A stretch of 64,000 nt of DNA from NCBI GenBank assembly GCA_016875915.1, contig VGOM01000010.1:959-64958 (forward strand), written 5' to 3'. The position numbers and the translations under genes were made by a program. The first letter of the stretch is position 1. Each line of letters opens with the position of its first letter. Positions 46,691 to 49,934 of this stretch are shown here, in pieces. The stretch is from Chloroflexota bacterium (lineage in GTDB: Bacteria; Chloroflexota; Dehalococcoidia; UBA2247; RBG-13-53-26). The notes beneath the pieces were generated by a model that was not told the DNA's origin, ran no database searches, and worked only from the letters and a program-made list of their open reading frames with translations.

Positions 46691-47128
46691 ATGACAAAGC
46701 CACTCATCGGTCAGGAGATCGCCCGGCAGATCAGCGGCGGGGTACCGCAGTCCGTGGTGGACTCCGGTCAGTCCTGGGTGCTGGTCCAGCCGGAGTCGGT
46801 CCTCCAGGTGGCCCGATACCTGAAGACCACCCCCGGCCTGGAGTTCGACTACCTCACCTGTCTCACCGGCACGGACTACCTGGACTACATTGAGGTGGTC
46901 TACATCCTGACCTCGATGAAGCACAACCACAGCGTGGTCCTCAAGACGCGCTGCAACCGGGAGAAGCCTGAGGTGCCCTCGGTGGTGGAGCTGTGGCGGG
47001 GCGCTGACTTCCAGGAGAGGGAGGTCTACGATCTCCTGGGGGTGAAGTTCGCGGGACATCCCAATATGAAGCGCCTCTTCCTCTGGGAGGGGTTCAAGGG
47101 GCATCCGCTGAGGAGGGACTACCTCTGA
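46691..47128 (+). CDS. nuoC: NADH-quinone oxidoreductase subunit C
   Basis: W..A...EREVYDLLG..F.GHP...R......F.GHPLR.D. Confidence 0.94.
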   Translation: MTKPLIGQEIARQISGGVPQSVVDSGQSWVLVQPESVLQVARYLKTTPGLEFDYLTCLTGTDYLDYIEVVYILTSMKHNHSVVLKTRCNREKPEVPSVVELWRGADFQEREVYDLLGVKFAGHPNMKRLFLWEGFKGHPLRRDYL

Positions 47129-48819
47129 TGCCCAAGCCCGAGCTGGTGCTCCTCCACGCCCCGAGCAACTACGACTTCCGGGAGAGGTCCATCGTCTATG
47201 GTCCCATAAGTGATGTCATCCCCTCCACGCCAGTGTTCGAGATGTACCCCATCGGTTTCATCAGCATCGCCGGCTACCTGGAGAAGGCGGGAGTGGCCAC
47301 CAGGGTGGTGAACGTGGCCAACAGGATGCTCACCGAGCGGGGCTTCAACGTGGAGCGCTTCCTGAGCAAGCTCCGTCCCGTGGCCTTCGGCATCGACCTG
47401 CACTGGCTGCCTCATGCCCAGGGCAGTCTGGAGCTGGCCAAAGTGGTGAAGAAGCTCCATCCCTCGATACCGGTGATCTTCGGCGGCTTGTCGGCCAGCC
47501 ACTTCTACCGGGAGCTGATGGAGTACCCCCAGGTTGATTACGTGGTCCGGGGTGATTCCACCGAGGAGCCGGTGCTCCAGCTGATGAGGCGGATCAAGAG
47601 CGGCGCCCCGGTGGAGGACGTGCCCAACCTGAGCTGGAAGGACAAGCAGGGTGCCGTGCACCACAACGAGCTGTCCTACGTGCCGGCCAATCTGGACGAT
47701 CTGCCCCTGGACTACGCCTATCCGGTGAGGTCAGTGATCAGGTACCGCTCCCTCTCCGGGATGCTGCCCTTCAACAACTGGCTGGATTATCCGGTGACTG
47801 CGGTGTTCACCTGCCGGGGCTGCAGCCTCAACTGCCACTCCTGCGGCGGTTCGCGTTTCGCCTTCAAGGGCGTGTGCAACCGGGACGAGGTGGCCTACCG
47901 CAGTCCCCAGATGCTGGCCGAGGATATCCACAGCATCCAGCGCTACCTCAGAGGGCCGGTGTTCATCATCGGGGACATCCGGCAGGCCGGCGAGGACTAC
48001 GCCGACAGGTTGCTGGCCGCCATGAGCAAGAGAGGGGTCCACGGCCCCATCGTCCTGGAGCTCTTCTCGCCCGCGGGCAGGGACTTCTTCGACAAGGTGA
48101 GGAAGGTCATTCCCCACTTCAATATCCAGATGTCCGTGGAGTCGCATGATGAAGAGGTCCGCCGGGCCTTCGGCAAGGGCTGGCGGAACGCCGACGTCGA
48201 GGAGACCATGAAGCTGGCCATCGAGAGCGGCTGCCGCAGGTTCGACCTGTTCTACATGATCGGCCTGGCCAGGCAGGACGCCGTCTCGGTGATGGATACC
48301 GTGCGGTACACCGGGAGCCTGCTGAAGGAGTTCGGCGGCAAGAGCGGGCTGCACCCTCACATTTCGCCGCTGGCGCCCTTCATCGACCCGGGGAGCCAGG
48401 TCTTCGACAGGCCGGAGGACTATGGGTACCGGCTGTTCTACCGGACGCTGGAAGAGCACCGCCAGGCGCTGCTCTCACCGGCCTGGAGCCAGATGCTGAG
48501 CTATGAGACCAAGTGGCTCAGCCGGCAGGAGATCGTGGATGTCACCTATGAGGCGGCCGTACGCTTCAATCAGATCAAGAGGATGAACGGCTTGGTCAGC
48601 CGTCAGGTGGCCGAGCGGGTGGAGTCGAGGATCAAGAAGGACCAGGTGCTGATCGCCGAGATCGAGAGGCGGGCCCGGGACCACGGCCGGGAATCGTGGG
48701 CCGAGGGAGAGAAGGAGCTGAGCCTGGCGGCGACCTGCCTCAAAGAGGAACTGCAATGGCCGGCGCGGTCATTTCTGCGTAGCATGCCGAGGATAATATG
48801 GAGCCTGTGCCGAGCGTAA
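47128..48819 (+). CDS. cobalamin-binding radical SAM protein (TIGR04190/Ta0216-like)
   Basis: HAPS.YDFR...[20 protein letters not shown]-terminus; B12-domain motifs GIDLHW..H and GGLSA...[14 protein letters not shown]xxxCxxC; PF.DPGS. Confidence 0.88.
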
Positions 48820-49934
48820 GCCTGGACATGGAACTGAAGACTGAGCCCTTTGTGCTCAACATGGGGCCGCAGCATCCCTCGACGCATGGCGTCTTCCGGA
48901 TGAGGGTGACCCTGGACGGCGAGGTGGTCGTGGGGCTGGAGCCGGTCTTCGGCTATCTGCACCGGGGGATAGAGAAGCTGGCCGAGACCCGGACCTACAC
49001 CCAGGTCATCCCCCTGACGGACAGGCTGCTGTACCTCAGCTCCATGGCCTGCAATCATGCCTATGTCCGGTCGGTGGAGAAGCTGGCCGGGATCAAGGTC
49101 CCCGAGAGGGGCGAGTACATCAGGGTGATCATCGATGAGCTGATGCGCATCTCCAGCCACCTCATGGCTGTGGGCTTCTTCCTCAACGACCTGGGCTGCT
49201 CGGTGTATACCCCGCTGCTCTACATGTACCGGGAGAGGGAGAAGATCCTGGACATGTTCGAGATGGTCTGCGGCCAGCGTCTGACCTACAATTACATGCG
49301 CATCGGCGGCGTGAGCAACGATGTCCCCGAGGAATTCATGCCGATCCTGAAGCGGTTCGTGGCCGAGATGCCCCACTATATCGATGAGTACGAGCAACTC
49401 CTGGCCCAGAACGAGATCCTCCTGGCCCGGACCAAGGGCGTGGGCATTCTGCCCCGGGACCTGGCCATCAACTCCTCGGCCGCCGGTCCGGTGCTCCGGG
49501 CCAGCGGGGTGAAGTGGGACATCCGGAAGGCCGATCCCTACTCGGTCTACGACCGCTTCGATTTCGAGGTGCCCATCGGCGAGGTGGGCGACAACTACGA
49601 CCGCTACCGGGTGAGGATCATGGAGATGCACCAGAGCCTGCGCATACTGGAGCAGGCCATGAAGCAGTTCCCGGCCGGGGAGGCCAATGCCAAGGTGCCC
49701 CAGTTCCTCCGGCCTCCGGTGGGCGAAGCCTACGGACGGGTGGAGACACCGCAGGGCGAGATGGGCTTCTACCTGGTCTCGGACAACTCCATCGCCCCCT
49801 ACCGGATGCACATCCGGCCCCCGGCGCTGCTCAATCTCACTGCGCTGCGGGACATGGTCATCGGCTGGAAGGTGGCGGACGTCATCGCCACCTTCGGGAG
49901 CATTGATATCGCCATGGGAGAGGTGGACCGCTGA
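48798..49934 (+). CDS. nuoD: NADH-quinone oxidoreductase subunit D
   Basis: [33 protein letters not shown]-terminus; no NiFe CxxC motifs. Alternative start 48828. Confidence 0.96.

Follow-up and report, generated by a model that had tools for sequence, protein, structure and literature searches.

We analysed a stretch of 64,000 nucleotides (the window) from a Dehalococcoidia genome (Chloroflexota bacterium, assembly GCA_016875915.1, contig VGOM01000010.1), in which a gene for a cobalamin-type radical S-adenosylmethionine (SAM) enzyme, called rSAM hereafter, lies within the complex I operon, between nuoC and nuoD. We observed that this order is kept across a family of Dehalococcoidia, and that one genus of this family has retained the enzyme in genomes where NuoD is not found. 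The enzyme is very probably not a maturase specific to complex I. At about an even chance, we favour a class B radical SAM enzyme that acts on an isoprenoid quinone and is co-expressed with the complex using this quinone. Dehalococcoidia, like many other strict anaerobes, possess an 11-subunit complex I with a poorly known electron carrier. The window's genome (G000) is a 2.16-Mb assembly, 93% complete, and the homologues found are labelled Dehalococcoidia.

A radical SAM gene between nuoC and nuoD

The complex I operon of the window, nuoABC-rSAM-nuoDHIJKLMN, occupies about 45.5-57.6 kb of the + strand and comprises 11 nuo genes; a Pfam search of this operon revealed no nuoE, nuoF or nuoG. The three genes at its centre are the following.

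46691..47128, + strand: nuoC, 145 aa (PF00329, 143 bits; TIGR01961, 125.6 bits)
47128..48819, + strand: B12-type radical SAM gene (rSAM), 563 aa (TIGR04190, PF02310, PF04055)
48798..49934, + strand: nuoD, 378 aa (PF00346, 310 bits; NF008974, 520 bits)

The stop codon of nuoC (TGA, 47126-47128) and the ATG of rSAM (47128-47130) share one base in the sequence TGATG, and a GAGGAGG motif in the 3' end of nuoC (47110-47116) stands 11 nt before this ATG. The rSAM gene ends with TAA (48817-48819). The first ATG of nuoD, at 48798, gives a 22-nt overlap with rSAM and is preceded by GAGGA (48789-48793); a second one, at 48828, lies 8 nt past the rSAM stop and yields the N-terminus MELKTEP. By comparison of start sites, nuoD of other genera begins 3-13 nt past the rSAM stop, which is the position of the window's second ATG. 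Since the congener L010 has the upstream ATG only, the overlapping nuoD start is plausible as a feature of this genus, and not as a general one. A preliminary description, made from the letters of the window, had placed a B12-binding, CxxxCxxC radical SAM gene between nuoC and nuoD, with its ATG overlapping the nuoC stop and its 3' end overlapping the first nuoD ATG; open reading frames (ORFs), domains and a direct reading of the sequence bear this out.

The GC content at third codon positions (GC3) is 0.89 for rSAM against 0.90 for nuoC and for nuoD, and the GC profile is flat. No repeat brackets rSAM, the repeat search having given short imperfect ones only (14-31 nt, 63-93% identity), and there is no terminator-like site on the + strand from 46691 to 48900. 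A recent horizontal insertion of rSAM was considered and rejected because there is neither a break in composition nor a bracketing repeat. The earlier remark that repeats and scars of a recent insertion are lacking agrees with these data, and we take the insertion to be an old and conserved one.

Conservation of the gene order

Profiles of NuoD and of TIGR04190, the family matched by the rSAM product, were searched in 41 genomes, the window's own and 40 relatives. TIGR04190 was found above the cut-off in 23 of them: besides the window genome, in 19 of the 21 relatives of the same family (f1) and in one genome each of three other families of the order. The order nuoA-B-C-rSAM-D-H was observed in the window and in the loci of 11 of these 19 relatives, belonging to genera g1 and g3-g8, and rSAM is embedded in nuo in all 12 f1 genomes that hold both TIGR04190 and NuoD. 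The nuoC/rSAM junction is also kept in 12 loci, with an ATGA, GTGA or TGATG overlap and the GAGGAGG motif in nuoC.

A wider locus scan, performed with a 14-sequence alignment, placed relatives in at least 596 species, and the best 80 loci were inspected for neighbours. Four more divergent embedded loci from Dehalococcoidia/Chloroflexota were found in this way (L068, L069, L071 and L074; 54-67% identity). Judged by gene order, we regard nuoC-rSAM-nuoD as conserved but lineage-specific, the embedded position being peculiar to one Dehalococcoidia clade within the TIGR04190 family. The preliminary description had asked whether the arrangement might occur in this assembly only, by chance insertion or misassembly; both explanations were rejected, since the order recurs in 12 of 12 family genomes and in the four further loci.

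The rSAM product as a class B radical SAM enzyme

The deduced protein matches TIGR04190 (B12_SAM_Ta0216) with 665.5 bits (cut-off 500; E = 6e-200) over model positions 2-516 of 554, and a genome-wide profile search of the window's assembly gave the same result. This hidden Markov model search bears out the family that the preliminary description had suggested. The match is full-length, with the same domain order and the same CxxxCxxC as the family, to which no function has been assigned. The B12-binding domain PF02310 covers residues 34-146 (51.7 bits, cut-off 32.1) and the Radical_SAM domain PF04055 residues 228-377 (39.3 bits, cut-off 29.5); the CSLNCHSC motif lies at residues 232-239, and its C232, C236 and C239 are invariant in alignments of 53 and of 14 sequences. 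The next NCBIfam families (HpnR, BchE, methylases of ribosomally synthesised and post-translationally modified peptides, HpnJ) reach 37-60 bits for cut-offs of 280-650. In a protein atlas, TIGR04190 clusters are both bacterial (Chloroflexota) and archaeal (Thermoplasmatota).

A sequence search of the PDB gave no match at E <= 0.01. An AlphaFold2 model computed with 53 homologues (predicted local distance difference test, pLDDT, 92.4; predicted template-modelling score, pTM, 0.92) comprises a Rossmann-like B12 domain, a radical SAM barrel and a helical C-terminal domain, with a low-confidence stretch of about 40 residues at the end that finishes in a helix (550-562). Each of the top 16 rows of a Foldseek search corresponds to a solved radical SAM enzyme with a cobalamin domain (class B-type), one of them, AprD4, being a diol dehydratase; TsrM comes first (E = 4e-18), then MgmA, TokK, OxsB and CysS, with E values from 4e-18 to 2e-13. 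These five (6WTE, 9CCB, 7KDX, 5UL4 and 9N1C, respectively) have the same three-part fold, with a query-normalised template-modelling (TM) score of 0.54-0.59, but identity is 12-16% only for the solved class B enzymes, and their substrates (tryptophan, a glutamine of methyl-coenzyme M reductase (Mcr), carbapenem, nucleoside and polyketide) are unrelated to this locus. Methylation of a ring would agree with the activity of TsrM, whose methylation target is an aromatic sp2 carbon; we do not rely on this, as TsrM ranks only slightly ahead of the other class B enzymes. HemN (1OLT), of class C architecture, is found only at rank 28 with a TM score of 0.25. On its sequence and modelled fold, we assign the product to the class B (cobalamin-type) radical SAM enzymes, with cobalamin binding and methyl transfer as predicted properties.

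Four further B12-type radical SAM genes, belonging to other families, are present in G000 (C17:23299-24990, C40:2350-3948, C32:6984-8813 and C49:1845-3299). Two of them resemble BchE (229 and 238 bits, below cut-off), another belongs to TIGR03960 (709 bits) and the fourth is nearest to tryptophan-methylase and ladderane-lipid types; the radical SAM repertoire is cobalamin-heavy for a 2.2-Mb genome.

The enzyme is retained in a genus without NuoD

When the 41 genomes were cross-tabulated, 14 held both the enzyme and NuoD, 9 the enzyme only, 13 NuoD only and 5 neither; NuoD is missing from 9 of the 23 carriers, and the enzyme from 13 of the 27 NuoD-bearing genomes. In genus g2 of family f1, the enzyme was found in eight of eight genomes (completeness 72-97%) and NuoD in none. 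NuoH was not detected in the four g2 genomes tested (93-97% complete), nor in any of the five enzyme-only genomes tested. The g2 enzyme shows 74-77% identity in the aligned loci.

Four genes bordering the operon of the window serve for comparison with g2.

43715..44482, - strand: metallo-beta-lactamase (MBL)-fold gene (Lactamase_B_2, PF12706), marking the upstream border of the locus
44532..45608, - strand: CorA-like Mg2+ transporter gene, between the MBL gene and nuoA (PF01544, 213 bits)
57672..58811, + strand: HtrA-like serine protease gene (htrA; Trypsin_2 + PDZ, Pfam), directly 3' of nuoN
58844..60325, + strand: ADP-forming acyl-CoA synthetase alpha-like gene (acd; CoA_binding_2 + Succ_CoA_lig, Pfam)

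All seven g2 loci with wide flanks read rSAM-htrA-acd. By blastp/tblastn, their htrA and acd are orthologues of the window's two genes after nuoN (64-70% and 65-70% identical, respectively), and three of the seven (L028, L030 and L033) have a divergent orthologue of the MBL gene (57-59%) directly upstream of rSAM. The CorA-like gene has no tblastn match in the g2 loci. Since the flanking orthologues are shared, the g2 locus can be read as the locus of the window from which nuoABC and nuoD-N have been removed on either side of rSAM.

Trees were built with FastTree, and their support values are SH-like (Shimodaira-Hasegawa) only. In the tree of 98 enzyme sequences, g2 (support 99) is nested within the embedded clade, beside g8 and g1 (support 95), and one gain and one loss suffice to explain the embedded state. 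The ratio of nonsynonymous to synonymous substitution rates (dN/dS) is 0.07-0.10 within g2 and 0.07-0.18 within the embedded genera, and all seven g2 proteins in the tree are full length with the cluster motif retained. We take this to indicate that the function of the enzyme is selected for independently of complex I.

The converse was also observed. In G011 (genus g9 of family f1, 86% complete), nuoC and nuoD abut and TIGR04190 was not found; the enzyme is also missing from 12 further NuoD-bearing genomes of the class. In the NuoD tree, g9 adjoins the embedded f1 genera, and the embedded L068 and L074 lie outside that group. This hints at a secondary clean loss of rSAM in g9, with moderate support (89-93) and one distant genome oddly placed.

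In a g2 genome, G016, in which NuoD and NuoH were not found, there is nevertheless a NuoF-like gene (L178:3412-4797; Complex1_51K + NADH_4Fe-4S), which presumably belongs to another flavin-based enzyme.

One of the two options of the preliminary description was an anaerobic maturase that modifies complex I post-translationally. Such an enzyme would act on NuoD, NuoB or NuoC, or would insert or edit a cofactor of the complex under anoxia. The tight translational coupling to nuoC, kept in 12 loci, would fit such a role, as would the existence of two independent linkages to nuo, the embedded one and a divergent one described below, and the solved fold relatives include the protein-modifying MgmA. 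However, a dedicated maturase is hard to reconcile with the nine enzyme-only and the thirteen NuoD-only genomes, G011 of the same family among the latter, and purifying selection on the enzyme is the same after g2 deleted all the nuo genes around it. In addition, hundreds of carriers in other phyla have no linkage to nuo, and the protein-methylating family TIGR04014 (Mcr glutamine methylase) scores a negligible 16.3 bits for a cut-off of 360. We consider a maturase of complex I very improbable.

Neighbours of the enzyme gene outside the nuo-embedded clade

In other families of the order, the TIGR04190 gene lies outside nuo. In G022 the order is gatB-SAM hydrolase-UbiE/MenG (TIGR01934, 215 bits)-UbiA-rSAM, in G025 it is MenA (TIGR00751, 103 bits, cut-off 102)-rSAM, and in L140, a Dehalococcoidales record, SAM hydrolase-UbiA-family prenyltransferase (MenA cluster)-UbiE-rSAM. 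On another contig, the window genome has gatB-x-SAM hydrolase-ubiE as in G022, without the ubiA and rSAM that follow there. This comparison suggests that the enzyme gene once belonged to a quinone cluster and was later transferred to nuo.

Among the 80 inspected loci, MenA lies within 7 kb of rSAM in 10, nine times upstream on the same strand. By record labels, the MenA-linked loci are assigned to Ignavibacteriota, Zixiibacteriota, Aerophobota, Planctomycetota, Lentisphaerota and Chloroflexota, and they are spread over three well-separated enzyme clades. As MenA accounts for about one gene in a few thousand, chance would be expected, on a rough estimate, to place it within such 14 kb in far fewer than one of 80 loci. 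A long-chain polyprenyl-diphosphate synthase is part of the menA-rSAM string of L079, and its cluster occurs in five loci. Two fusions of rSAM with UbiE/COQ5 (PF01209, 235-240 bits), P0124 and P0154, represent separate clusters at 50% identity; TatC and PGA_cap are other fusion partners. In Ignavibacteriota, the genes upstream of MenA are unrelated housekeeping genes.

Complex I itself recurs as a neighbour in another form. In a clade of three loci (L113, L114 and L124; 49-50% identity), the enzyme gene is divergent from nuoA, and this clade groups in the enzyme tree with the menA-linked Dehalococcoidia, apart from the embedded clade. On this evidence, we regard the divergent arrangement as a second, independent linkage to nuo. 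The preliminary description had held that homologues without a link to nuo would speak against its reading; most homologues are indeed not linked to nuo, but two separate clades are. In L113:1364-4375 and L124:1381-4395 (- strand), nuoH and nuoI share a single open frame of about 1000 aa, within which about 1.3 kb of extra sequence splits the NuoI match into two halves.

A molybdopterin/4Fe-4S oxidoreductase and FdhE are upstream of rSAM in 6 of 80 loci, an NrfD-type membrane subunit being confirmed only in L079.

A second radical SAM gene lies upstream of rSAM in seven loci (L075, L079, L092, L095, L098, L102 and L144). This uncharacterised gene encodes about 305-325 aa with DUF3463 and, among the NCBIfam models, scores best with that of the PTO1314 family (TIGR03961, 131 bits, below cut-off). 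Five of the seven loci are also MenA-linked, and where MenA is on the same strand this gene sits between MenA and rSAM. A two-enzyme module made of the PTO1314-like protein and TIGR04190 is possible from this gene order; the genome of the window holds no close homologue of the PTO1314-like gene.

An isoprenoid quinone as candidate substrate

We infer the substrate and the reaction of the enzyme from what was observed of its gene order, family, fold, conservation, selection and quinone-related neighbours. A quinone is favoured because the recurrent partners either make it (menA, ubiE, polyprenyl synthase) or use it (complex I, NrfD-type oxidoreductase). An enzyme of menaquinone biosynthesis or tailoring would be expected to lie repeatedly near menA, ubiE/menG and polyprenyl-diphosphate synthase or to be fused to such partners, as was observed for this family. 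UbiE/MenG is encoded in the window genome (TIGR01934, 228 bits). The other option of the preliminary description was an enzyme modifying a lipid or a membrane electron carrier, possibly a Grs-like lipid cyclase; the contexts with menA, ubiE, polyprenyl synthase, UbiE fusions and quinone-reducing enzymes favour its electron-carrier part.

In the mechanism that we propose, an ancestor of this family of Dehalococcoidia would have acquired rSAM exactly where nuoC and nuoD meet. There the gene would have taken over the coupling site at the nuoC stop, so that the enzyme would be made whenever complex I is made. Its substrate would be the membrane isoprenoid quinone (menaquinone-type) to which complex I passes its electrons, or a late precursor of this quinone. 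With SAM, a [4Fe-4S] cluster held by C232, C236 and C239, and cobalamin, the enzyme would methylate a carbon, or perform related C-C chemistry, in either the ring or the prenyl tail; methylation of the ring would lower the redox potential of the quinone. The placement in nuo would tie the supply of the enzyme to the complex that reduces the quinone, and other enzymes would still use this quinone in g2.

Several observations weigh against this proposal. First, no MqnA/D, MqnC or MenB was found above cut-off in the window genome (93% complete), PF02621 (MqnA/D) is present in only 4 of the 41 genomes, and menaquinone is thus only a putative product of these organisms. Most Dehalococcoidia of this sample have neither of the two known routes to the menaquinone head group. 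Second, the UbiA-family gene of f1 scores 57-84 bits for a MenA cut-off of 102, is not adjacent to the enzyme gene and could not be found in the assembly of the window; it also occurs in relatives without the enzyme, so that its profile does not discriminate. Third, the substrate is proposed through guilt by association, and the contexts are mixed: moxR is upstream in 17 of 80 loci, 7 are surE-linked and 26 have no recurrent neighbour. Finally, the P0124 and P0154 fusions are metagenome gene calls, in which two adjacent genes could have been read as one. The phylogenetic profiles of MenA-like and MqnA/D proteins do not track the enzyme and neither support nor refute a link to quinone. The neighbours of the MenA-like gene in f1 (MTHFR, recA/recX and, about 2.4 kb downstream in L179, a polyprenyl synthase) give no further clue.

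The mixed contexts bear on another explanation, in which rSAM would be a promoterless gene hitch-hiking in strongly expressed operons, with an unrelated housekeeping substrate and an uninformative position in nuo. Besides the moxR and surE settings, selA is downstream of rSAM in 10 of 80 loci, TatC and PGA_cap also occur as fusion partners, and in g2 the enzyme persists after deletion of its host operon. In eight loci (L077, L084, L088, L090, L097, L100, L107 and L111), moxR (AAA_3), rSAM and DUF58 follow each other on one strand. Against hitch-hiking, there are two independent architectures with nuo, and menA, ubiE, polyprenyl synthase and quinone-reducing enzymes recur across three enzyme clades and no fewer than six phyla, which exceeds random landing. 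We judge this explanation unlikely.

The moxR-rSAM-DUF58 loci belong to Anaerolineae/Chloroflexia records, and in L097 the end of rSAM overlaps the start of DUF58; this is a second case of a TIGR04190 gene locked within an operon.

Lipids and the tetraether synthase homologue

A further explanation is that the enzyme methylates, cyclises, cross-links or desaturates the chains of membrane or membrane-spanning lipids made with the tetraether synthase Tes, and is co-expressed with the main membrane complex. The window genome has a Tes homologue above cut-off (NF045702, 498 bits, cut-off 450) and, according to an excerpt of bioRxiv 10.1101/2025.10.20.683597, the tails of glycerol dialkyl glycerol tetraethers (GDGTs) are the target of archaeal B12 radical SAM enzymes some 500-600 aa long; both points count against a quinone as substrate. 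Tes was also found in 17 of the 21 relatives of the same family, including all eight g2 genomes, the enzyme has weak NCBIfam matches to HpnR (60 bits), HpnJ (37 bits) and a ladderane type (29 bits), and the terminal helix of the low-confidence tail in the model could bind the membrane.

On the other hand, no Tes was found in 6 of the 23 carriers, namely G006 (97% complete), G022 (93%), G023 (95%), G025 (97%), G013 and G003, there is no Tes-like ORF within 7 kb of the enzyme in the 80 loci, and no lipid-synthesis gene recurs as a neighbour, unlike menA, ubiE and polyprenyl synthase. These absences also speak against the Grs-like cyclase of the preliminary description. The same text had supposed that TIGR04190 includes GrsA and GrsB. 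Sulfolobus acidocaldarius encodes GrsA, GrsB and Cgm, as stated in the excerpt of the same preprint, and its genome, taken as a control, gave only sub-threshold matches to the TIGR04190 model, its Grs/Cgm proteins missing the cut-off; this indirect test of orthology argues against the supposition. In addition, an excerpt of a metagenome survey (PMC11868695) describes GrsA homologues as 'noticeably missing' from Chloroflexota. We find the case for a Grs-like lipid role weaker than that for a quinone; lipid chains in general are, in our opinion, a possible but unlikely substrate.

The Tes homologue of G000 lies outside the window, on contig C12:6561-8057 (- strand; locus L163), and is a radical SAM protein of 497 aa. 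Its homologues, which are those of the 17 f1 relatives, are found almost nowhere else in the class, and this bacterial lineage may make membrane-spanning lipids.

Other genes of the operon

The remaining nuo genes of the window were identified as follows.

45518..46072 (ORF as listed), + strand: nuoA (PF00507, 111 bits)
46066..46653 (start approximate, listed ORF from 45871), + strand: nuoB (PF01058, 105 bits; relatives align from residue 1 of this interval)
49934-51040, + strand: nuoH (Pfam PF00146)
51024-51530, + strand: nuoI (Fer4 families)
51527-52015, + strand: nuoJ (PF00499)
52012-52341, + strand: nuoK (PF00420)
52541-54541, + strand: nuoL (PF00361)
54607-56091, + strand: nuoM (PF00361)
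56121-57587, + strand: nuoN (PF00361)

The true start of nuoA is probably later than that of the listed ORF, since the Pfam match begins only at residue 89. Long antisense ORFs (44451-45704 on the + strand, 49799-51145 on the - strand and similar ones) over corA, nuoD/H and other genes have a GC3 of 0.56-0.66; they are high-GC artefacts, the real frames having a GC3 of about 0.9.

Relation to known enzymes and significance

MenK, MqnK and MenK2 are class C radical SAM methyltransferases of menaquinone, acting at C-8 or C-7. The role that we propose, anaerobic tailoring of menaquinone by a radical SAM enzyme, is the same, but MenK and MqnK are HemN-like, have no cobalamin domain and are non-homologous beyond the SAM barrel, whereas the enzyme of the window has a B12 domain. 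MenK and MqnK are touched on in an excerpt of PMC8065906. Slr0320 of Synechocystis is needed for photosystem II function in high light, and the authors of PMC8065906 state that quinone methylation by it 'cannot be excluded'. Slr0320 (NF045585) is a class B radical SAM enzyme of a different family, to which the protein of the window has no match at E <= 0.01. The archaeal GrsA/GrsB, Gmm, Cgm/Pgm and Ted are cobalamin radical SAM enzymes too, comparable in size and with membrane isoprenoids as their substrates, and this genome has a Tes homologue; the differences are those given above, namely no S. acidocaldarius match above the TIGR04190 cut-off and carriers of the enzyme without Tes.

Our literature search found no publication naming TIGR04190 or Ta0216, none, among the matches listed, that describes menaquinone synthesis by a cobalamin radical SAM enzyme, and none on a radical SAM gene inside nuo. 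The family had been catalogued, and the fold and the class are known; the nuo-embedded architecture with its extent, the second independent linkage to nuo and the g2 deletion are new here.

Genomes of the class commonly encode complex I, UbiE/MenG and a MenA-like prenyltransferase. A bolder proposal would be that TIGR04190 provides the cobalamin-dependent step of an anaerobic quinone biosynthesis, in which it would build or remodel the head group with the PTO1314-like protein and MenA. This would concern Chloroflexota and at least five other phyla, in lineages, this class among them, that have complex I, UbiE and a MenA-like protein but neither the Men nor the futalosine pathway, and complex I would owe its acceptor to the nuo-embedded copy. 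We regard this proposal as rather doubtful, more so than either hitch-hiking or a lipid substrate. TIGR04190 is named after the Thermoplasma acidophilum gene Ta0216, and thermoplasmaquinone is a methylated menaquinone. In T. acidophilum under anaerobic conditions, thermoplasmaquinone represents 97% of the quinones, according to an excerpt of PMC10821996.

In conclusion, an unstudied family of cobalamin radical SAM enzymes, present in at least 596 species, recurs near menA, ubiE, polyprenyl synthase, complex I and quinone-reducing oxidoreductases. Genus g2 offers a natural experiment, in which an operon was deleted around one gene, and this separates 'co-expressed with' from 'needed for' complex I. 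If a quinone is indeed tailored or built by this family, a class B enzyme would be added to quinone biosynthesis, as a cobalamin-type, non-homologous counterpart of the class C MenK/MqnK. Part of the cobalamin demand of these organisms would then be explained, and modified, low-potential quinones would have a genetic marker by which to trace them in anoxic environments.

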